The translations under genes and the position numbers were made by a program. Source: Candidatus Heimdallarchaeota archaeon (lineage in GTDB: Archaea; Asgardarchaeota; Heimdallarchaeia; Hodarchaeales; Hodarchaeaceae). From it: a DNA stretch of 51,776 bases. Of this stretch, positions 13,858 through 39,366 are shown piece by piece. The notes beneath the pieces are model-generated. The model was given only the letters and a program-made list of their open reading frames with translations, had not been told where the DNA came from and did not search any database. Position 1 is the stretch's first letter. Every line of letters starts with the position of its first letter. Location of the stretch: assembly GCA_019057635.1 (NCBI GenBank), contig DXJL01000199.1, positions 1-51,776 on the forward strand. Reading direction: 5' to 3'.

Positions 13858-14376
13858 ATGGCTGAAGATTCGCTCAAATATAAGGTAGTCCTTGCAGGAG
13901 AAGGCGCTGTGGGGAAAACTACGCTTATTAATCGATTTATAACGGGAAGTTTTTCTGCTGATTACAAAGCTACAATAGGTGTACAAATTTTTTCCAAAGA
14001 AGTTACTTTAGACAATGGTAAAGAGGTCAGTCTTCAGATATGGGATATAGCAGGGCAAACCTTGTTTCGTAATCTCCGTACCAAGTTTTTTCAAAACGCG
14101 AGTGGTGCATTACTCGTTTTTGATTTAACCATTCCAGCAACTTTAGAAAATCTCCACACTTGGATCTCTGATATTAAAAATATAACTAATAGTATCCCTT
14201 TTGTTCTAATTGGTAACAAAGTTGATCTTAATGAACTGAAATCAATTACTCAGGATGATGTTAACGCCTTTATGATGGATCACTTTGAGGATATCCGAGT
14301 TCATTACGATACCAGTGCCTTGACGGGTGAAAATGTCGAACAGGCGTTTGAGGATCTTATTAAAAGTATGTTATAG
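13858..14376 (+). CDS. Rab-like small GTPase (Ras superfamily)
   Basis: G1 GEGAVGKT, G2 YKATIG, G3 WDIAGQ, G4 NKVD, G5 TSA; no prenylation tail. Confidence 0.95.
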   Translation: MAEDSLKYKVVLAGEGAVGKTTLINRFITGSFSADYKATIGVQIFSKEVTLDNGKEVSLQIWDIAGQTLFRNLRTKFFQNASGALLVFDLTIPATLENLHTWISDIKNITNSIPFVLIGNKVDLNELKSITQDDVNAFMMDHFEDIRVHYDTSALTGENVEQAFEDLIKSML

Positions 14377-23740: not shown

Positions 23741-25753
23741 CTATATCTCCTTGATAAGCTGTTTAAATCGGTTTTTCAATGCCTTTTTCTGAGAAATAAT
23801 CTCTCTAAATTCTGATGATCTTTTATTTTTCACGGCCGAATCAGAGGGTAATACAAGAACTATTTCCTTTAATCTGTCCCCTAATGTAGATATCGTAGCT
23901 TGGATGAAGGTTTTCGCTTTAATCTGCTCCTGAACAATATCTGTATTCAGACTCCAAAGTAATAGGTATTCATCTAAAAATGGATTTTCACAGGTAATAC
24001 GAAGTTTATTTAAGTGACTTTGAATAATAATTTGTTCATCATGTTTAGTAATCATTGCATTTCTGCCAATGAGAAACGTTCCATCATTAACAATTAAAAT
24101 ATCTCCTGCTCTAATATCTTGCTTGTCTTTATACTTATTATATGTGTCTTTACTGACTTGTTTTAGAGGATCCACATTAATTTCTAAATTTATAATGTCA
24201 CTTGTTCTAACAAATGGTACCGTGCCCGTTCCATACGCCTTTGCACCAATTTCATGTCCTCTCGCAATAGAAAGATAGTTTCTCGAGACTAAATCTCCTA
24301 GAGAAACTAGTGTGTAACCTGGTCTATTTTTATAAACTTCTAAGCGATTATTTATACTGGGGTTGTAATATGCAGGAATAAGGATGTTATTAACGATGTT
24401 TTCTCGATCGAGGATAAATCCTAATGATGAATAACCGATTCTTTTCCCTGTTTTAAAAATACGAAAATTCTCTGTAATAGCAGGTAAATCATCAGCAATG
24501 ATCTTATTACCGTTTTTATCTAATGTAGGTCCACCGAAGTCATCTAATCGGTATATTTCCTTCCCATTTTTGTCATGTCCCACTTTCTTCGCTATCGCAA
24601 AAAAAATCGGGTAGTTACCCTGTTGTTTTGTTTTTTCGATAAACAATAAAGAAGTTTTGATGTGTGTGTGGGGCGCAAATGCAAGGTGGCTGCAGCTAAT
24701 AACCGCCAAGATGGTATAATTCTGGAGTAAGAAATCGATAATATAGCGGTCTGAACTATTCCCAAATATTCCTTCAGGTAATACAATAGCCATTCTTCCC
24801 CCAGGTTTTAGCAATTGTAGACATCTTTCGATGAATAATATTTGTGGTGGTTGTCGTTCTCGTATTTTTGATATTTTCTTCCAAGTTTTACCTTTATCCT
24901 GCCACTTATGTCCCAACTCATACTTTTCTAAGATCCTTGGATCTGTGATAGGAATTTTCGCACCAAAAGGGGGATTACATAAAACAACATCAAACATACT
25001 CAGTGTGATATTAGATTGAGTGGTGTTTGTCCACTTCTCAGGTGTTTCTAATGAGTTTTCACAGAAAATACTTGGGTTTCGATAATTCAGAATTGCTAGA
25101 TGTAATCTAGATATTTTGACGAAAAACTCGTCTTTATCGATTCCAAACAATTTACAGTTATTAATATCTTTATGAAGCGACAATGTACTTGTTAGAAAAC
25201 CTCCTGCCCCACAAGCAGGATCAATGACTAATTCATCAACTTTTGGATCTAAGATTTGCGCCATTGTTAACGAGATGTTTTTAGGAGTAAAAAATTGACC
25301 TTGTGATCCCCGTAATGCTGGTAATAAAATCTGTTCTATTGCATCTCCAATTGCATCTCGAGGAGCTTCGCTAATTGCAAAAGTTTGTAACTCTGCCACA
25401 ATCACTCGAAGGTTTGCCTCATCAATAATCAATTGGTCATTTGTGGCATCAATAATTTCATTGAATTGGGATTTAAGTTCATTAAACAATTTATTAATCC
25501 GTGCTACAAGTGTTTGCTTATCAGGATGGTCAATTTGGAAGAGAACTGGTTCAGTAGAAGGAGTTTCAAGCTCATCCTGAATTTTACAAAATAAAAGGAA
25601 TAATACTTGCTCTACCAGAGTATTATCTTGTGTAATACCCTTGAAATTACCAGCTAGATGATTACGAATGTCAGAAAAAACTTTCTTGAGATCATTTGGA
25701 ATATTTAGGTCATTGCGGTATATTACCATCGTTAAACTTGGGATTATTTTCAA
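23741..25753 (-). CDS. N6-adenine DNA methyltransferase, HsdM-like domain fused to one HsdS-like target recognition domain
   Basis: GQFFTP, motif I DPACGAGGF, motif IV NPPFG, LKPGGRMAIVLPEG; the C-terminal PFVRTSDI..GDILI..DG..IGR..LKEIVL pattern is S-subunit-like. Confidence 0.9.
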   Translation of the reverse strand: MKIIPSLTMVIYRNDLNIPNDLKKVFSDIRNHLAGNFKGITQDNTLVEQVLFLLFCKIQDELETPSTEPVLFQIDHPDKQTLVARINKLFNELKSQFNEIIDATNDQLIIDEANLRVIVAELQTFAISEAPRDAIGDAIEQILLPALRGSQGQFFTPKNISLTMAQILDPKVDELVIDPACGAGGFLTSTLSLHKDINNCKLFGIDKDEFFVKISRLHLAILNYRNPSIFCENSLETPEKWTNTTQSNITLSMFDVVLCNPPFGAKIPITDPRILEKYELGHKWQDKGKTWKKISKIRERQPPQILFIERCLQLLKPGGRMAIVLPEGIFGNSSDRYIIDFLLQNYTILAVISCSHLAFAPHTHIKTSLLFIEKTKQQGNYPIFFAIAKKVGHDKNGKEIYRLDDFGGPTLDKNGNKIIADDLPAITENFRIFKTGKRIGYSSLGFILDRENIVNNILIPAYYNPSINNRLEVYKNRPGYTLVSLGDLVSRNYLSIARGHEIGAKAYGTGTVPFVRTSDIINLEINVDPLKQVSKDTYNKYKDKQDIRAGDILIVNDGTFLIGRNAMITKHDEQIIIQSHLNKLRITCENPFLDEYLLLWSLNTDIVQEQIKAKTFIQATISTLGDRLKEIVLVLPSDSAVKNKRSSEFREIISQKKALKNRFKQLIKEI

Positions 25754-30454: not shown

Positions 30455-30853
30455 TTACGGATCAAATACAGTCGTAGAGAATTGCTGTCGGTACATACTT
30501 TGGATGCTAACAAGTTCTCCTTTAGTAAGAGTAAGAATCCCCAATTTTTCTGCCAATTCACGTGCAGTGCTTGAGAATTGGTTGGCCACAACCATTACTC
30601 GATTTAAACTAGGAGTATTTGTTTGTAATCGTTCTGCTTCCAAAATGCAATTATAACCACAACTTCTTGACCAATCTTTAACAACAACCCCAATATTTCC
30701 TCCCAGGCTCACGTGTGGGTCGGTACTTCCATGAACAAGATATGAAAACGATACATCCTTGTCATTTTTTCCTCTTATACAAACATTTTCATGAAATTGA
30801 AATTTCCGAAATCCCAAAAAAGCCTGAACAAGCCCATCTAATTCTTGAACCAT
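30455..30853 (-). CDS. Mrr_cat/restriction-endonuclease-fold protein with a degenerate active site
   Basis: IRGK....SFSYLV...GVVVKDW.R..G..........VMVVANQFSSTARELAEKLGI.TL pattern; Ser and Val occupy the expected catalytic D and E/Q positions. Confidence 0.65.
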   Translation of the reverse strand: MVQELDGLVQAFLGFRKFQFHENVCIRGKNDKDVSFSYLVHGSTDPHVSLGGNIGVVVKDWSRSCGYNCILEAERLQTNTPSLNRVMVVANQFSSTARELAEKLGILTLTKGELVSIQSMYRQQFSTTVFDP

Positions 30854-32119: not shown

Positions 32120-33538
32120 CTAGATAGATTCAAATAAAGATTCGATACCAGGTTCAATACCCTGCAATAAACTAAAACCGAATCGTGTTTCACGATTAGT
32201 AATTTCTCCAACGAAATTTGTCTGCATTAGAGTCTTTACCTCTTCAAGACTTGACGGAGGGAATCCAGTATGTCCCAAAACATAAGCCAATTTAGGGTAG
32301 GCTGCTTCAGGCAGCATATTTCCTCCTTCAATAACACCCCGAGCTAACATTTCTCTTCCTGTTTCATACACACGTAAATGAGCAAATCCATAGAGAGGTT
32401 GAACGACCATTACGATCGGGATACATTCTTCTTGCGCTCGTTCTAAAGCTGGATAGAAGTCAGAACTCACATGGCCAAGACCAGTTCCTATCATAACTAC
32501 TCCATGATATCCTAAATCTATTACTGAATGGAGCATGTCGGGATTCATACCTGGGTAAAAGTATAAGATAGCCACTTTTTCATCGATTTGCGCATCTAAA
32601 CGGAAATCCTCATGCTTCGCACGACATTTGACAGGGGAAAAGTATGAAATTTCTTGGGTTTGCCAATCGATTTTTCCAACCGGAGGAACTGATAAACTGC
32701 GAAATGTATCTCGTCTACTACTATGCATCTTTCTAACTCGAGTCGGACGATGTAAATAATCCGCTTTATGGCTAGTTGAACCCATCATAGAAATTAGTAC
32801 TTCACCTATGTCTGCATAACCGGCAACCGTTGCTGCGTTTAACAAATTGATTGCAGCGTCACTAGACGGACGATCTGAGGATCGTTGAGAACCCAGTATT
32901 ATCACTGGAATCGGTAGATTATGCAAAAAGTACGATAGTGCAGACCCAGTATAGGCCATAGTATCTGTCCCATGTCCAATTATGATTCCATCAGCCCTGC
33001 TGTCCACTTCCTTTGCTATTTCTTCAGCAGTCTTAACCCAAAATTCAGGCTTGAAATTTTCAGAGAGAATTTCAAAAAGAGTTCTTGGAGTTAAATTAAC
33101 ACGAGATTGAATTTCAGGAACTGCAGCAAATAATTCTTCAGGAGTAAAAGCTGGGAGTACAGCCCCGGTTCGATAATCTAGTCTACTGGCTACCGTACCA
33201 CCAGTACCTAGTAGAACTACATCGGGAAGAGATTCCTTACGTTTCACATTTATGGCAGGTAATCGGTAATTACCTTTTGAATAGCCAAGATGTTGAAAAA
33301 TTGTTTTTTCGGTTATTTCTATTCCAATGTTATATCCAGTATCCAACACTCTCAAAGTGATAAAATTTGGAGCGGTAAAAGCTGATCTAGGTAATAATAT
33401 TCCCTGAAAATGGGCTCCATTTTCTTTTGTAACAACAATTTCGGACCATACTTTTATTTTCTCTCTTAACAAGATCTCATGTATTTTACCTTTATATCCA
33501 GGTAAAGTATCATCATCTTCGTCCATATTACTAATCAC
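32120..33538 (-). CDS. gatD: Glu-tRNA(Gln) amidotransferase subunit D
   Basis: GYNIG, GTGGTVASRLDYRTGAV, HGTDT, GSQRSSDRPSSD, RKMHSSRRD and GTGLGH motifs. Confidence 0.96.
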   Translation of the reverse strand: MISNMDEDDDTLPGYKGKIHEILLREKIKVWSEIVVTKENGAHFQGILLPRSAFTAPNFITLRVLDTGYNIGIEITEKTIFQHLGYSKGNYRLPAINVKRKESLPDVVLLGTGGTVASRLDYRTGAVLPAFTPEELFAAVPEIQSRVNLTPRTLFEILSENFKPEFWVKTAEEIAKEVDSRADGIIIGHGTDTMAYTGSALSYFLHNLPIPVIILGSQRSSDRPSSDAAINLLNAATVAGYADIGEVLISMMGSTSHKADYLHRPTRVRKMHSSRRDTFRSLSVPPVGKIDWQTQEISYFSPVKCRAKHEDFRLDAQIDEKVAILYFYPGMNPDMLHSVIDLGYHGVVMIGTGLGHVSSDFYPALERAQEECIPIVMVVQPLYGFAHLRVYETGREMLARGVIEGGNMLPEAAYPKLAYVLGHTGFPPSSLEEVKTLMQTNFVGEITNRETRFGFSLLQGIEPGIESLFESI

Positions 33539-35474
33539 CGATTTTTCCTTCTTTGAGAAGGGTGGAAAGAATTTGCTCGCTAGTCAACATAGGAAAATGC
33601 GCTTTTAGAATTCCAAACAGCTTATCTAGGGTAATATTATTAGGTTGCTTTTCTGAATCTGCAATTACGACTTTTATTCGTCGGTACATATCATCGTCTA
33701 TATTTGTTCTCTCTAGTAGTCGTGTCTCTCTACTATATACACCTGAACTATCAATTTCAATTAGAATTGCTTCTAGAAAATCTTTAGATATTTGGTTTGT
33801 TATCAAATCTGTCAATAATTGTTTGTAGATCTGACTATTCGTTTCTTTGTTAAGCTGATGCTTTTTTATATAGTGAGAAGCCTGTTGTATTAATCCTAAC
33901 AACTTTCTACAGGACTCTGGGTATTTTAGAATGATAAATGAAAACTCAGGATAGAAATTTACTTTTTCAATAAAAATTAATTCCCTTACTGAAATAGGAA
34001 ATTTCGAGGATATATCCCAAGGAGGAATAATGTCAGGGGGAAGCAGTTCGGAGTAATCTAAAGAAATAGAAACAGGAGGAGTATCAGTATCGGAATACAT
34101 TCTATCTTTTCCATGGATAACTCGTAAAAATTCACTATTGTGGGTGTTAGGGTTAATTCGTCTTGTTTCTTCTGGTATACCGTTCAGAGCCTTATTCATA
34201 CGTTCAATTGTTCTTGATAATGCATGAATTACGCTTTTTTGAGATCCACAGATCACGACATAACTGTCATTATTTTTTAGATTAAGAATCTCTCGGACAC
34301 GGTTGCTGTTCAACCACTGTTGAGGAGTGTCAGATTGGCTCATTTTGTCCATTGACAATCCTGTGATCAATTCTATCCGATCAAAAAGTTCTTCTGAAAA
34401 TAGCTTTCCTGGTTGCACGTCTATCAAGAATATACCTTTACATTTAGGTAATCTAACAGCTAAACCTACTTCATTCTCACCGAGATTAGTAATCGCAGAA
34501 GAGACATCAATATAATTTGCTTGGAAATCAGATTTTTTGATTCCTCTATCTCTTAATTCTCTCATAAGATCAAGTAGCGCCAATTGGCGAGTAATCTCAT
34601 GATCACAGTATTGAGGTAGATCATTTATGTCCTGAATTCCTTTTAATTCAACTCGTGCTCCACCAGTTATTGAAATGTTAACATCTTGACGAACAGACCC
34701 AATCCCTCTTCGTGCAATCCCCAATACTCTAAGTCCCAGACCAAGCAGTAATCCTATATTCTGTAAAGCAAAAGGATCTTGACAATCTAAATGATTCGTA
34801 ATAATTTCTGTTAAAGGAATTCCTAACCGATCAAGATTATAATAAACAGTACGAGACGCTCTATCATGGAAGTTTACTCTTCGTGCAGCATCCTCTTCTA
34901 TTAATACATTATTAATTCTTATTTTTTTGTCTTGGAAATTTATGAATCCATCACGAGCAATAATTGTGGTACGTTGAAAACCTGTTGTAATAGAACCATC
35001 TAAATATTGTTTACGATTAAAAATGACCTCGTTAACAGGGGATTCACAATTCAAAAATCTAGCAAGCATAAATCCTTTGGTTATGGTTTCATTGCAGGGA
35101 GAAAATGGCGGGGTCTCATCCATCTCGTAGGTGCAAATATTATTGCCATAAGTTTCATAGATTACACGGTAGTGCTTCTCAAACTCGACAAGCATCCCTG
35201 CATCGAAATCTCCGAGTTCCCCAAGCACAGGTCTAAAGTAACGTTCAAAATGATAATCACTGTAGGCTGTCGAAGGTACTAATTCGGGAGGACAATGGCA
35301 AAATAATTTTCGTTCGGACTGTAATTGTGCATGTATTTCTAAACCTGCACAAAAACCTAGTTCTTCATAATTATAATTGAAAGACTTTACTAACGGGGCT
35401 TGCACTATCTGTCCTACCCAATTTTTGTACATTTTTAATATCGGATTGCTACTGATTACCTGTAGCAAAATCAA
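33531..35474 (-). CDS. gatE: Glu-tRNA(Gln) amidotransferase subunit E (true start probably near 35405)
   Basis: GLEIHAQL, KLFCHC, DETPP, DGSITTGFQRT, EEDAAR, LDRLGIPL.EI, RGIGSVRQDVNISI, PEETR and RMY.DTD.P; overlaps gatD. Confidence 0.95.
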   Translation of the reverse strand: MILLQVISSNPILKMYKNWVGQIVQAPLVKSFNYNYEELGFCAGLEIHAQLQSERKLFCHCPPELVPSTAYSDYHFERYFRPVLGELGDFDAGMLVEFEKHYRVIYETYGNNICTYEMDETPPFSPCNETITKGFMLARFLNCESPVNEVIFNRKQYLDGSITTGFQRTTIIARDGFINFQDKKIRINNVLIEEDAARRVNFHDRASRTVYYNLDRLGIPLTEIITNHLDCQDPFALQNIGLLLGLGLRVLGIARRGIGSVRQDVNISITGGARVELKGIQDINDLPQYCDHEITRQLALLDLMRELRDRGIKKSDFQANYIDVSSAITNLGENEVGLAVRLPKCKGIFLIDVQPGKLFSEELFDRIELITGLSMDKMSQSDTPQQWLNSNRVREILNLKNNDSYVVICGSQKSVIHALSRTIERMNKALNGIPEETRRINPNTHNSEFLRVIHGKDRMYSDTDTPPVSISLDYSELLPPDIIPPWDISSKFPISVRELIFIEKVNFYPEFSFIILKYPESCRKLLGLIQQASHYIKKHQLNKETNSQIYKQLLTDLITNQISKDFLEAILIEIDSSGVYSRETRLLERTNIDDDMYRRIKVVIADSEKQPNNITLDKLFGILKAHFPMLTSEQILSTLLKEGKIGD

Positions 35475-35625
35475 ACTTGGTTTTTCTGAATAAAAGCATA
35501 TAAAATTAAGCTTTTAAATCCATGAATATATCCTTCAATCAGATACTTACATCTTTCAATATTCTCAATCTTTTTACTTAAGATTTACAGCATAATATGT
35601 TCTGTCTCGGGAGATACACTTAATA

Positions 35626-36726
35626 ATGCCCAAAAGGAAACAACAGTCTATTCATTTAGCTTTTACAACTGCGGAGTGTAGACGAATAATTAAAAAAACG
35701 GGGATAAAACGTGTATCACAGAATGCCGCTGTAGCCTTAAATAAACTACTCACATACAAAGCTAGAGAAATAGCTGCTGGAGCAGTTGCCAGAAGTAGTG
35801 AAAGAAATACTCAAACTGTTTCAGCTGATGACATTACTTATGCAGTTCGTATGGGATCTCCCGTAACAGGATATGAAGTTGATAGTACAGCTCCTGTGGT
35901 GCATTATGTTTGGTTTATATCGTCTGCTGGTACCTGCTTGCTTTCTCGCTCATATTCTGGATTAAAATTTCCTGATACTATTTTTGCTGGTCTGGTAACT
36001 GGTATAGTTGATTTGCTGGCTGAGGTTACTGGAAGATTGCTTGATAAAATTACTACCGACGAATTAGTAATTCATATCCGTAGAATAGGAGAAATGACTG
36101 TAGCAGTTATTTGTGATAGTGAACAAACCGAACCCATTGATGAATTAACGGATTTACTTGCTCGTCGATTTTCAGACGTTTTTAATGAAGAAATTAACCA
36201 AGAAGTAATAGATGTGGGAATATTTGAAGATTTTACACCAGTTTTAGACGCTTTAGTTTCTGGTGCAGGATTGAACATCCCCAAAGGAAGACTGAAAGTA
36301 ATAGGTGAGCAGCAACTACGTCTTACAGATAAACAACTTGAAGAAACTGTCGATGCTGCTGCTTTAAGGCAAGAACTACGTCGTGCGCACGAATCCATCC
36401 AAGATTTCGGATTATTCAGGAAAGAAGTGAACGAAGAAGATTTAACGACGACTGATGTTGATTTGGATTTTGATGAGTCACCAGATGTGTCTGAAATAAA
36501 AGCTGTATTACGTCAAGCGTCGAAAGATATTCGACAAGAGATACAATCCAATGACACTCCAGAAGATCACGAACTACCAAGTACAGAACAGATAACATCG
36601 AAAGACATTAGAGAAGAAGTGGCGAAGGATTTATCTGAAATTATTCACCTGGAAAGCGAAGAACAGGTGATCAAAAAACCAACAAAGAAGAAGAAGAGAA
36701 AAAAGTCACGAAAAAGACGTAAATAG
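35626..36726 (+). CDS. Histone-fold / longin-like domain fusion protein with an acidic region and a polybasic tail
   Basis: aa ~11-75 RRIIKKTGIKRVS...REIA..AV...TVSADDITYAVR (histone fold); aa ~91-211 VHYVWFISSAGTCLLSRSY...IFAGLVTGI...VAVICD...RRFSDVF...FEDF..LDALV (longin pattern); ends KKPTKKKKRKKSRKRRK. Confidence 0.82.
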   Translation: MPKRKQQSIHLAFTTAECRRIIKKTGIKRVSQNAAVALNKLLTYKAREIAAGAVARSSERNTQTVSADDITYAVRMGSPVTGYEVDSTAPVVHYVWFISSAGTCLLSRSYSGLKFPDTIFAGLVTGIVDLLAEVTGRLLDKITTDELVIHIRRIGEMTVAVICDSEQTEPIDELTDLLARRFSDVFNEEINQEVIDVGIFEDFTPVLDALVSGAGLNIPKGRLKVIGEQQLRLTDKQLEETVDAAALRQELRRAHESIQDFGLFRKEVNEEDLTTTDVDLDFDESPDVSEIKAVLRQASKDIRQEIQSNDTPEDHELPSTEQITSKDIREEVAKDLSEIIHLESEEQVIKKPTKKKKRKKSRKRRK

Positions 36727-36738
36727 AATTCAGTACGT

Positions 36739-39366
36739 TTATAGTAATTTTTCCCACTGTTTTTTAGTAATACCATAAATTTTGAAGACAATTTCATCCA
36801 TAATTCTTTGATTATGGTTAAGGAAAGCTTGGTACTTTTCAAGTTCTTTTAGGAGGAATGATAGGTTCATTCTAGTAGTTTTAGAAAGAACTGAGAACTT
36901 TTCTGGATTTTTACAGAAATGGAACAATCTTTTTTGCGAACTAAAAGGGAATACTTCAGAATTGGATTTGACTAACTTCCATATTTTCTCATAAATATTA
37001 GAAACTTTGCTCCCAATTTGTATATTTTCTTGCGTTTTAACTTCTAATTGCTTAATTCTTTGAACTTGAACATTTGTACTATTTTTTAGGCTAATTATTG
37101 GAAAATGATTCATATCCCTAATTCGAATTTGTGGATATCGATTTCCTTCAGTTCCCGATGTACGAATTATATTTAACTCTTCTCCCAACCAATTCCCTAG
37201 AGCTGATGTAAGTATACCAACTATCAAATATGGAGAATAAGGTGTTTGGATATTATAGATTGTATGGAGATTCCTCAATCCGAAAAACCCCTTTTCATCA
37301 TAATTTACAATAAATTTTGAAGCAGTTTGACGGACTAATATTTTTGGTTCAGTAAATCTTTCTTTCTCTCCTGAAATTAAAAGGACTTCTTTGTTTCCAA
37401 CTTTTGAACGATTCAAATTATTCTCTCGAAGATAATCTTCATAATCCTTTGAGAATCTAACGAAGGAATTTTTCATCCCTGAAACCCAAAAAGTTACAAA
37501 AGACTGTGGTAATCCATTAGCTCCATCTATCACTCGATACATATCACTAGATAGCGTATTGGATAGAAAATGAGATTTAAGCATACTTCCATATTCCAAA
37601 CCACAGGAAACCTTTGAGATGTCTCCCAATTTAATGACTACGCTATTGATTTGATTCAGTATTTCACGGGTAGCCATTTTTCGGTAAATCTTAAAGATGA
37701 AATTTGGGTGATCACTAAAATGACTTGTGGGTTCAATCTTAGGCTCATAATTCAAGTTCTTTTGGCCTAAAAATGATATAGAGTCCTTTTCATGATCCTT
37801 AGAGTTTCCTAATATTAGAATAGATAAGTCTACTACTGCTTGTTTATATTTGTAATTTTCAAGCAAGTAGATCAAGGTATACTTCTCCAATAACGTTTTA
37901 CGTATTTCACTGTACGAAGATAGATCAAGAAAGGAATGGTCAATAACAAAACTCACGACTCCGTCATTCAAACGTGAAGAATAGCTTAATGCTAAACCAA
38001 GGAACATAATGTAAAGATTATCACGCTTTCCCATGAATTTGGGAATCATTTGTTTGAGGATTTTCCTAATATCAGGGGGAATAACCTTTTGTGAGAATCG
38101 TCCTGATAAAGGAATATAGGGGGGATTTGAAAGAATTAAATCATATCTAGGATGAGGAATGTTATTCTTATAATTATTGGACATGTGGTGCAAGAAATTC
38201 TTTTTCTGCAGATTATTCGAATTTTCAGGTAAATCACTGGATAGACTTAGGAACAAATTAATAATATTCCCAGAAAAATTTATGATTTTTTCATCAATGT
38301 CGAATCCAAAAAAGGAAGATAAAAATAACTCTTTTCTGAGTTGTAAAAGTGAACTGAAGGGAAGACGATCTTCGTGTTGGAGAACTTGATTAACCAGCCA
38401 TTCTAATGCTACAATAAGAATCAATCCAGTACCAGAAGCTGGATCTAGAATCTTTAATTTCTTGATGTTGTTGATTGAGGATATTTTGCTGGTTTTTATC
38501 TTATTAAAGGAGTGAGAGACCAATGGAAACGTAAGTTCTAAAGGAGTAAAATATTGACCTCTTAATTTGTCAATATTTAGCGGTAAGGGAGGATATTCAA
38601 GTAGGTGGATTAATGTGAGATCAAGAAGATCGACATAAGATAATTCAACGACTTGTTCGATAAGAATGTTCTTTTGTAGTAAGTCTAAAAAACGTGTAAT
38701 GTCGATATTAGTTGGATGTGTATCATTCTGAAGTTTAATCATTTCAAAATCGTTTAGAGTTTGTGAGTAATTCATAAAAAATTCATTTGGAGAAGTAAAT
38801 CCTCGTAAGCGATCCAATTTAGGAGTATCACCGTTTTTATGTGAATCACTTTTTCGCACAAACTCAATAATCTTCAAAAATACGCTAAAGCCATTTTGAT
38901 ATGATTGTAAACGAATTTTGTCATTATAAACTTCAAGAATCCCTGGGTTAACGAAAATTGAGGCAAGAAGCAGTGATGCGAGGTTTTTAGGAATAATTGA
39001 CCAGCAAATAATGAAATTGTGTGACATCGAAAAGATTAGAGTCTCATTAGTTGAAATGACAATGATCCAATCAGGAATTCCCTGGGTGATCAATTTCTTT
39101 CTAAGAAACTGAATAATTCTCAGATTTTTAAAATTAAATAATTCTTGAGCTAAAATATTCGAAATGAGAATCCCCACGCGTGATTTAATCCAAAAATTAC
39201 CAATATTCTCTAGATTTTCAGATGGGGACCCGAGTAAATTGTTGAAGTTCTTAGCTTCAATATTTTGAAAGGTGGCATGAAATACTGAATTTTGTTCAGA
39301 ATCTGGATTCTCTTTTTCTAATATTAACTGATCCTCAATGAGTTTAATCTGTGCCTTAAGAGGCAT
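36739..39366 (-). CDS. Eco57I/TaqI-like (gamma class) N6-adenine methyltransferase with C-terminal TRD; N-terminal nuclease domain apparently degenerate
   Basis: GQYFTP, LDPASGTG, FGFDID, LSNPPY, NLYIMF, Y.EIRK.LL, PKILVRQT and YPQI.I motifs. Confidence 0.88.
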   Translation of the reverse strand: MPLKAQIKLIEDQLILEKENPDSEQNSVFHATFQNIEAKNFNNLLGSPSENLENIGNFWIKSRVGILISNILAQELFNFKNLRIIQFLRKKLITQGIPDWIIVISTNETLIFSMSHNFIICWSIIPKNLASLLLASIFVNPGILEVYNDKIRLQSYQNGFSVFLKIIEFVRKSDSHKNGDTPKLDRLRGFTSPNEFFMNYSQTLNDFEMIKLQNDTHPTNIDITRFLDLLQKNILIEQVVELSYVDLLDLTLIHLLEYPPLPLNIDKLRGQYFTPLELTFPLVSHSFNKIKTSKISSINNIKKLKILDPASGTGLILIVALEWLVNQVLQHEDRLPFSSLLQLRKELFLSSFFGFDIDEKIINFSGNIINLFLSLSSDLPENSNNLQKKNFLHHMSNNYKNNIPHPRYDLILSNPPYIPLSGRFSQKVIPPDIRKILKQMIPKFMGKRDNLYIMFLGLALSYSSRLNDGVVSFVIDHSFLDLSSYSEIRKTLLEKYTLIYLLENYKYKQAVVDLSILILGNSKDHEKDSISFLGQKNLNYEPKIEPTSHFSDHPNFIFKIYRKMATREILNQINSVVIKLGDISKVSCGLEYGSMLKSHFLSNTLSSDMYRVIDGANGLPQSFVTFWVSGMKNSFVRFSKDYEDYLRENNLNRSKVGNKEVLLISGEKERFTEPKILVRQTASKFIVNYDEKGFFGLRNLHTIYNIQTPYSPYLIVGILTSALGNWLGEELNIIRTSGTEGNRYPQIRIRDMNHFPIISLKNSTNVQVQRIKQLEVKTQENIQIGSKVSNIYEKIWKLVKSNSEVFPFSSQKRLFHFCKNPEKFSVLSKTTRMNLSFLLKELEKYQAFLNHNQRIMDEIVFKIYGITKKQWEKLL

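Follow-up and report, generated by a model that had tools for sequence, protein, structure and literature searches.

A histone fold joined to a predicted longin domain in a conserved single-copy protein of Hodarchaeales

Histones and the longin and roadblock regulators of small GTPases are common to Asgard archaea and eukaryotes alike, and the two groups of proteins have been studied separately. A locus of a Candidatus Heimdallarchaeota archaeon, in which both appear to be combined in one polypeptide, raises the question of whether such a fusion is real and of what it would do. The DNA analysed, here called the window, is a stretch of 51,776 nucleotides (positions 1 to 51,776 of contig DXJL01000199.1, assembly GCA_019057635.1), and the gene concerned occupies positions 35626..36726 of its + strand, stop codon included. 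The open reading frame (ORF) map exhibits a single frame that runs from an ATG start without interruption over 366 aa, as read in a first-pass annotation made from the sequence alone, which had proposed a histone fold, a longin-like domain, a helical and acidic region and a basic tail. We regard this domain architecture as secure, with very little room left for doubt.

The N-terminal part contains a diverged archaeal histone fold at aa 13-77 (35662..35856, + strand), close to the aa 11-75 of the first-pass annotation, according to Pfam, NCBIfam, structural match and column statistics. The Pfam family PF00808 (CBFD_NFYB_HMF) matched aa 16-74 with an E-value of 6.2e-8 and 33.2 bits, against a curated cut-off of 21.4, while the NCBIfam model NF043032 (archaea_histone) was reached only just, with 50.1 bits for a cut-off of 50. 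The best sequence matches in the PDB were HMfB (E 6.2e-6), HMfA, HPhA and the Hodarchaeal histone 9qv5, with E-values of 6.2e-6 to 4.7e-3. In a full-length AlphaFold2 model built on 62 homologues, the histone helices cover aa 15-24, 32-59 and 67-77, and the model superposes on HPhA (1ku5_B) with Z 9.5 and a root-mean-square deviation (rmsd) of 1.1 Å over 66 aa, at 35% identity. The fold is preceded by a short, mildly basic tail (aa 1-12, 35626..35661, + strand) with a net charge of +3 and predicted local distance difference test (pLDDT) values below 50 at aa 1-8; across the family the net charge of this tail has a median of +2 and ranges from -3 to +5.

The second domain, at aa 91-213 (35896..36264, + strand), is the best conserved part of the protein, and its assignment comes from models, structural searches and conservation. 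In the full-length model the strands lie at aa 91-99, 104-109, 141-143, 148-154 and 157-163, and the helices at aa 117-135, 169-190 and 197-213. A domain-only model of aa 88-262, built from alignment A2 (a 175-aa construct, whose numbering plus 87 gives that of the protein), has a core pLDDT of 83-94 and a predicted template modelling score of 0.70, and presents the same order of strands (E) and helices (H): E4-12, E17-22, H30-48, E54-56, E61-67, E70-76, H82-103 and H110-126. This beta-beta-alpha-beta-beta-beta-alpha-alpha order, which the first-pass annotation had recognised at aa ~91-211, starts with a strand, has no N-terminal helix and ends with two C-terminal helices.

When the domain model was compared with 48,161 chains by VIA-align, ranks 1-13 were all occupied by proteins that we take to be longins from their entry titles and from our general knowledge, with Z 11.7-14.4, 108-126 aa aligned and rmsd 2.2-3.1 Å. 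They include Fuzzy (7q3d_C, Z 14.4, rmsd 2.4 Å, 123 aa), VAMP7 (4afi_B, Z 14.1), Sec22 (3egd_C, Z 13.1), Mon1 (9rs7_A, Z 12.9) and TRAPP (3cue_A, Z 12.9). The top roadblock match appears at rank 14 (MglB 3t1r_A, Z 11.7, rmsd 2.3 Å, 103 aa). The longin alignments extend to model residue 123-138, whereas the roadblock ones end at 93-105, before the last helix. In the same way, the search with the full-length model gave longins at ranks 1-27, and Foldseek returned 96 PDB matches at E ≤0.001, led by COPI zeta, AP sigma subunits, TRAPP, Mon1-Ccz1, Fuzzy and VAMP7, the top E-values being 5.9e-6 to 1e-4.

At the level of sequence, the evidence for a longin is weak. The query matched none of the longin-type Pfam families Longin (PF13774), Fuz_longin_1 (PF19036), Clat_adaptor_s (PF01217) and Sybindin (PF04099) with E-values up to 10. 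The matches of its relatives to such families, found in 9 of 20 and 4 of 19 proteins, were all sub-threshold, the best being that of P0084 to Fuz_longin_1 (25.6 against 26.1). Profile A2, searched against PDB sequences, retrieved TRAPPC1 (E 0.0043), SR-alpha (0.0075) and AP-4 sigma (0.018) amid unrelated matches of similar strength. The roadblock family Robl_LC7 (PF03259) was matched neither by the query, with E-values up to 10, nor by any of the relatives (0/20 and 0/19). Considering that the modelled domain lacks an N-terminal helix and ends in two helices, a longin is preferred over a roadblock domain, and the available text of Tran et al. (2024, Commun Biol, PMC10933270) describes the two folds in agreement with this topology criterion. 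As modelled, the second domain is a longin and not a roadblock domain, an assignment that is new here. Failure of either domain to be confirmed structurally had been named beforehand as a ground for refuting the proposal; both domains were confirmed.

The fusion is not an accident of one assembly. Among the 66 proteins returned by a word-indexed search, 62 (349-499 aa) are full-length and show 49-82% identity across the aligned region; submitters mostly labelled them Hodarchaeales or Heimdallarchaeota, and they usually bear the annotation 'histone' or 'histone-like'. Nineteen loci in named metagenome-assembled genomes (MAGs) encode it. A full-length profile that includes divergent members (A3), run on 400 sampled genomes of the phylum at E ≤1e-25, detected the fusion in 21 of them, namely the genome of origin, 18 of the 21 other members of its family (f1) and both members of a second family of the same order (f2), and in none of the 376 other genomes sampled. 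Completeness is 87%, 71% and 93% for the three f1 genomes that lack the fusion. It always occurs in one copy per genome, the lone split case being located at two contig ends. The fusion is thus single-copy and conserved across the Hodarchaeales-type order, and its restriction to this order holds within the 400 sampled genomes; the same architecture in other Asgard genomes was among the checks that the first-pass annotation had proposed. Additionally, an exhaustive HMMER search over 1.84 billion representatives found further fusions (P0067-P0078) with 27-38% identity, and the longin-domain rows of two of them (P0069, P0071) are identical to ORFs of same-order genomes of the second family (G078, G079). 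A search of the ESM Atlas gave no usable match for the fusion protein.

A chimeric junction and a fusion confined to one genome were the other grounds for refutation named beforehand, and neither holds. The junction at 35850-35900 is bridged by contigs from two runs of two studies, without indel or joint: run X1 covers 35705-36900 with 0 differences and run X3, from the other study, 35757-36036 with 12 differences. Run X1 may be the sample of origin. An assembly or gene-calling artefact in which two genes were joined is contradicted by the homologues, by the 21 genomes with one frame and by the bridging contigs; nothing speaks in favour of it, and its probability is negligible.

The histone part differs from the other histones of the same genome in the residues that matter for chromatin assembly. 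Positions were mapped through the HMfB sequence alignment, in which HMfB residue n corresponds to query residue n+10. In HMfB, we take R19, R52, K53, T54 and D59 to be the DNA contacts of loops L1 and L2 together with the Arg-Asp clamp, and His49 to belong to the four-helix bundle between dimers. The 62 orthologues keep Gly16 (61/62), the L1 arginine Arg19 (61/62), Lys13 (56/62), Arg52 (54/62) and Asp59 (62/62). At the position of His49, 50 of the 62 present Glu (also D 5, N 2, Q 2 and I 1), the position of Lys53 is Asp or Glu in 44, and that of Thr54 is occupied by T and by E in 29 sequences each; the query is the sole member of the 62 with Thr at the Arg52 position. In the nine other histone-fold genes of the genome (six of 67 aa, one of 72 aa, an N-tailed one of 91 aa and a doublet of 142 aa), the motif is always GRKT, GKKT or KRKT, and His49 is retained in each but the N-tailed one, which has Asn. 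The fused histone fold therefore lacks the nucleosomal His/RKT signature, while its net charge (family median +5) can be set beside the +5/+6 of the 67-aa histones.

With the His and R-K-T signature gone from the fused fold, ordinary co-polymerisation with normal histones is doubtful, and since His49 and Lys53 are replaced and the query is without R-K-T, the building of hypernucleosomes is probably absent. To our knowledge, histone folds always pair in a handshake dimer, which is assumed for the fused fold as well. From its residues, the histone part may be a DNA-binding but non-polymerising dimer that acts on its own or as a capping unit. As to the two unusual histones of the genome, the doublet (C131:2307-2714, - strand) has two histone folds per chain and a net charge of +13, and the 91-aa histone (C116:3415-3591, - strand) carries a lysine/alanine-rich N-terminal tail. 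Both fit the kinds of Hodarchaeales histone variants named in the available text of PMC10919886.

Mean conservation is 0.85 in the longin domain compared to 0.70 in the histone fold, so that the longin part is under the stronger constraint. The two domains are connected by a flexible linker at aa 78-90 (35857..35895, + strand), with pLDDT below 50 at aa 80-83; a linker had been predicted, its length being 13 aa and not the 15 aa first given. Behind the longin domain, the acidic helical region of aa 214-347 has a net charge of -17. It includes a conserved helix A (aa 233-262, 36322..36411, + strand; conservation 0.82, model helix 242-260), which is kept in divergent relatives, where it is aligned in the A3 consensus, and a conserved helix B (aa 284-308, 36475..36549, + strand; conservation 0.77, model helix 286-308). 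These are followed by a variable acidic stretch (36550..36666, + strand; conservation 0.26-0.52) with helix C, modelled at aa 325-347. The protein ends in a polybasic tail, aa 348-366 (36667..36723, + strand), with a net charge of +14; the helical/acidic region and the basic tail of the first-pass annotation are thereby both recovered. In all 62 orthologues the last 20 residues include 9-16 K+R (median 14), and the median net charge of the tail is +15. None of the 62 tails contains Cys, Trp or Phe; their composition offers no Cys or aromatic residue as a sign of lipidation or of insertion into a membrane.

Complex prediction was performed on two copies of aa 88-262, in three runs and with 3 controls. 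The homodimer obtained a score of 0.70, compared to 0.01 for the best of the controls, with 100% contact agreement among the runs and a partner pLDDT of at least 71; the score mark was reached by 20 of 30 proteins whose solved structures are same-chain pairs and by 1 of 23 with single-chain structures. The predicted interface, within aa 113-147 (35962..36066, + strand), is formed by the loop between beta2 and alpha1 (aa 113-116), by residues along a single side of helix alpha1 (aa 119-135) and by aa 137-147, which include the edge strand beta3. In construct numbering these are residues 26-29, 32-33, 36-37, 39-40, 43-44, 47-48 and 50-60. Residue 142 of each copy is placed opposite residue 142 of the other. 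Pairing through a helix and an edge strand is the mode of roadblock and longin dimers. The longin part is thus predicted to homodimerise, which is new here, and Tran et al. (2024, PMC10933270, available text) hold the central helix responsible for roadblock dimerisation. Invariant residues are mildly enriched in the interface (12/25, compared to 26/98 elsewhere in the domain; one-sided Fisher p = 0.036). Constraint is high over the whole surface of the domain, a hint that it may have several surfaces for binding. With two self-pairing domains and a flexible linker between them, the protein could chain up or bridge DNA segments.

The longin domain is a member of a phylum-wide module, elsewhere fused to Arf/Ras GTPases and winged-helix domains, a relationship that is new here. 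The domain profile A2 matched 394 of the 400 genomes at E ≤1e-5, usually with at least 8 matches per genome. Among 19 paralogues sampled from other genomes, four carry an Arf/Ras GTPase, two a weak winged-helix match, and one each TackOD1, V4R and a prenyltransferase toroid, ten having nothing recognisable; P0096 also consists of a longin and an Arf-like GTPase. The genome of origin contains 18 ORFs with the module, of which the fusion gene scores 234 bits and the next best 61, and the others include an Arf GTPase with a longin, two tetratricopeptide repeat (TPR) proteins, a HerA-like protein and a major facilitator superfamily (MFS) protein. In one own-genome protein of 317 aa (L093, C67:19739-20692, + strand), an Arf-family GTPase at aa 6-170 (E 6.3e-33) is followed by the longin-like module at aa 182-270.

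A quick IQ-TREE reconstruction of 75 domains over 141 columns, with long branches and many unresolved forks, placed all 18 histone-bearing rows in one 23-row clade with a Shimodaira-Hasegawa-like approximate likelihood ratio test (SH-aLRT) value of 96. The remaining five rows of the clade have either a degenerate N-terminal region (three) or none (two). The tree is consistent with a single origin of the histone-longin fusion; with 141 columns, long branches and a quick search only, the placement of the clade relative to its neighbours and to the GTPase-fused copies is tentative.

Several other proteins with the module were observed. The 428-aa product of L075:989-2272 (- strand, genome G309) combines an N-terminal longin-like module with a prenyltransferase alpha-alpha toroid (E 5.4e-30); in eukaryotes, the Rab prenylation machinery works with longin and GTPase partners. 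Two proteins of about 700 aa (L073:1923-4091 and L074:1968-4046, both + strand) have an N-terminal longin-like module and a remainder without Pfam family, and frames of 682-736 aa of this kind recur in the phylum families f12 and f14. In L068:1501-2631 (+ strand, genome G001) the module is fused to TackOD1 (E 2.1e-31) and in L080:2001-2789 (+ strand, genome G161) to V4R (E 7e-10). As TackOD1 and V4R are output or small-molecule-binding domains, the module serves outside GTPase contexts too.

How far this protein had been described depends on the name given to its second domain. No paper joining 'histone fold' and 'longin domain' was found by a literature search, and the earlier claim that no histone-longin fusion had been described holds as far as the longin name is concerned. 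It has to be qualified in view of one sentence in the available text of Hocher & Warnecke (2024, Genome Biol Evol, PMC10919886), which mentions, without any known function, a "histone fold fused to a Roadblock/LC7 domain" in Hodarchaeales. The clade is the same and the label differs. The genome of origin has 10 histone-fold and 10 Robl_LC7 matches without any overlap, and the fusion protein is its only histone fold in a long frame; the group of that sentence, as far as the available text defines it, is therefore most probably the present family under a neighbouring label. Beyond this mention, the extra helices, the polybasic tail, the signature loss, the taxonomic range and the predicted dimer are added here. 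The fusion is not described in the available texts of Schwab 2024, 'Histone diversity in the archaeal domain of life', a 2026 Asgard chromatin preprint, Tran 2024 and a structural-clustering preprint. The finding is thus real and less unheard-of than the first-pass annotation held, being a variant of histone-fold fusions and of Asgard longin proteins.

Compared with the canonical archaeal histones (HMfB, HPhA, HHoB 9qv5), the fusion family has a similar fold and largely keeps the L1 Arg, Gly16 and the Arg52-Asp59 clamp, but the protein is about 290 aa longer and the His49 and Lys53 positions are altered. Its longin shares the fold of Asgard longin proteins such as the Lokiarchaeal longin dimer 8yqg (8yqg_B, Z 10.3, rmsd 3.4 Å, 127 aa). 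In the available text of Tran et al. (PMC10933270), roadblock and longin dimers are platforms for small GTPases, and Asgard GTPases occur fused to longin or roadblock domains; these fusions have no histone fold, the word 'histone' having 0 occurrences there. The best structural matches are to eukaryotic platforms (TRAPP core longins, Mon1-Ccz1, Fuzzy-Inturned/CPLANE, BLOC-3), and the predicted alpha1 + beta3 pairing is of the same platform kind, whereas identity is only 7-18% and those proteins are without histone fold.

Histone folds have been linked to the small-GTPase world before, in the Lokiarchaeal 'Rab GTPase histones' and in SOS, whose histone domain binds lipids (Schwab et al. 2024, PMC11390915, available text). 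The former have the GTPase N-terminal to an alpha3-type histone fold, and SOS a double histone fold beside a Ras guanine nucleotide exchange factor (GEF). Unlike them, the fusion protein has no GTPase or Cdc25/REM domain by Pfam, its histone fold is N-terminal and its partner domain is a longin. The longin R-SNAREs (VAMP7, Sec22, Ykt6) match the longin with Z 12.2-14.1 and have a similar layout of longin, helices and C-terminal anchor-like element. Nevertheless, a SNARE reading was rejected, since there is no Synaptobrevin/SNARE-motif Pfam match, no transmembrane segment and, in the K/R-rich C-terminus, neither a hydrophobic stretch nor a Cys for lipidation; in addition, the helices of the fusion are short (19-23 aa) and set apart by low-confidence acidic linkers. 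A preprint on Heimdall SNAREs mentions neither longin nor histone.

As to function, the reading that we favour, tentatively, is that of a DNA-anchored dimeric longin platform which recruits or regulates a small GTPase or another partner. The histone fold would pair with that of a second copy or with a small histone, and, together with the K/R tail, would bind DNA as a non-polymerising dimer that has lost the residues for hypernucleosome stacking. Two longins would pair via alpha1 and beta3 into a two-longin platform, of the kind that docks a small GTPase or another helical partner in TRAPP, Mon1-Ccz1 and Fuzzy-Inturned of eukaryotes and in MglB of bacteria. The platform, and whatever it recruits or regulates, would in this manner be placed on the chromosome. 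We infer DNA binding, the identity of the partner and any activity as GEF or GTPase-activating protein (GAP). By analogy, it is the paralogue fusions only (4 of the 19 sampled, P0096 and the own-genome C67:19739-20692) that suggest the GTPase link.

Several observations weigh against this platform. The DNA-contact positions of loop L2 are degraded, the query having T-Q-T for R-K-T. Among 10 divergent relatives only 1 has the basic tail, and the net charge of their histone folds is -4 to +6; with the tail mostly lacking and this spread in the charge of the fold, DNA binding may not be the core function of the family. In the tree, the neighbours of the fused clade are winged-helix, V4R, TackOD1 and stand-alone forms, in an unresolved group, while the GTPase-fused copies form a separate clade. 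The Ras-family GTPase gene of the window (13858-14376, + strand, 172 aa; Pfam Ras 2.1e-45, Roc 7.7e-34) is of the usual Asgard Rab/Ras-like kind, lies 22 kb off and is unlinked, and in the synteny of related loci no conserved neighbouring gene for a GTPase, roadblock or longin protein was found. As longin and roadblock dimers have already been solved, the pass in complex prediction may reflect likeness to known structures. When residues of at least 90% conservation are counted, the interface is not enriched (15/25, compared to 62/98), and the model does not place helix A confidently against the longin core (pLDDT 53-63).

Part of these observations would fit a DNA-binding regulator without any GTPase, in which the histone fold and the tail bind DNA and the longin dimerises, senses or binds a partner, by analogy with the paralogues that combine a longin with a winged helix. 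The nearest neighbours in the tree include longin fusions with HTH_5/TrmB (P0083 = L060, P0084, P0090), V4R (L080) and TackOD1 (L068), the gene neighbourhood offers no linked GTPase, and positive charge is carried by both the histone fold (basic) and the tail (polybasic). However, the winged-helix Pfam matches are all under their curated cut-offs (21.7 vs 22, 22.3 vs 25.6, 20.4 vs 27.1), the tree branches there in an unresolved, long-branched polytomy, and all solved top structural matches are longins of trafficking or GTPase regulation; we consider this regulator doubtful, though a serious competitor. A scaffold on the membrane side appears somewhat less probable still. The histone fold would be a dimerisation handle, as in TAFs and SOS, the tail would bind anionic lipids, the longin pair would regulate an Arf/Rab-like GTPase, and chromatin would not be involved. 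The degraded L2 residues and the lost tetramerisation His agree with it, as do the weakly charged histone folds of divergent relatives, the paralogues fused to GTPases, and the lipid-binding histone domain of SOS and the 'Rab GTPase histones' in the available text of PMC11390915. Against such a handle, the close family keeps the charge of the fold (median +5), the L1 Arg (61/62) and the Arg-Asp clamp (54/62 and 62/62), its tail is devoid of Cys, Trp and Phe, and the absence of the tail from 9 of 10 divergent relatives means that it cannot be a universal anchor.

It could also be asked whether the label Roadblock/LC7 in the available text of PMC10919886 is the right one, which would make the protein an MglB-like NTPase regulator fused to a histone. 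The core fold is shared, with matches up to Z 11.7 (MglB 3t1r_A). Nevertheless, Pfam Robl_LC7 finds neither the query nor its relatives, none of the 10 Robl_LC7 matches of the genome overlaps a histone fold, and the weak sequence matches are all to longin-type families. The lack of an N-terminal helix, the two C-terminal helices and the early end of the roadblock alignments, whereas longins reach Z 14.4, make a roadblock domain very improbable.

A more specific form of the favoured platform, and a rather improbable one, is a histone-anchored longin dimer that, bound to chromatin, would dock an Arf/Rab-like GTPase or act as its exchange factor; the nucleotide state of the GTPase would then be set by proximity to the chromosome. 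If true, it would represent a prokaryotic forerunner of chromatin-coupled GTPase signalling, as in the eukaryotic RCC1-Ran system, and a physical link between the nucleoid and the membrane-remodelling machinery before a nucleus existed; the host order is the Asgard order often placed nearest to eukaryotes. In the DNA-anchored platform as such, binding of DNA together with docking of a GTPase would make it the first chromatin-anchored regulation of a small GTPase outside eukaryotes. If DNA is not bound, the protein would exemplify, like SOS, a histone fold taken over by trafficking-type machinery for dimerisation. In both cases the result would inform how chromatin and endomembrane control were wired prior to eukaryogenesis. 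Since the protein is small and looks soluble, and since the available text of a preprint (10.64898/2026.07.02.735847) reports a Hodarchaeales strain in culture, the question is directly testable.

The surroundings of the gene are those of an ordinary chromosomal locus. G+C is 33-39% over the entire window with no local break, and the neighbours include GatD/GatE, an N6-adenine methylase, a PAS histidine kinase and rubrerythrin. The fusion gene is divergent from gatE-gatD and convergent with the gene of an 875-aa N6-adenine DNA methylase; judged by this orientation, it is monocistronic. Between gatE and the fusion gene lies an AT-rich intergenic region (35475..35625, from ORF map and sequence), within which two promoters are presumed. 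A promoter and terminator scan with bacterial-type models, uninformative for an archaeon, gave 4 promoter-like sites for 5.8 expected and 0 terminators. The opposite-strand ORFs of 108 aa and 60 aa inside the fusion gene are shadows of the conserved coding frame.

The methylase (36739-39366, - strand) contains N6_Mtase, Eco57I and a TaqI_C specificity domain, and its stop codon is 12 bases apart from that of the fusion gene. A methylase homologue is found at most two genes downstream of the fusion gene in 16 of the 18 related loci that have downstream sequence. Synteny across the order extends to a histidine kinase, a 212-aa ORF and a ZIP transporter, all on one side, and to an upstream ORF of 132 aa. 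As the whole block is collinear across the order, the proximity of the methylase and the synteny carry no functional signal.

The window has a second large N6-adenine DNA methylase gene (23741-25753, - strand), with N6_Mtase and Eco57I. The 132-aa ORF (30455-30853, - strand), without Pfam match, lies directly upstream of the fusion gene, or of the gatDE insertion, in 13 of 19 related loci, with 55-95% identity. In the window (32120-35474, - strand), as in loci L021-L023 and L029, gatD and gatE separate the fusion gene from the conserved block upstream of it; gatDE is absent from this position in most other loci, and locus L024 has gatE alone there, at a contig end.

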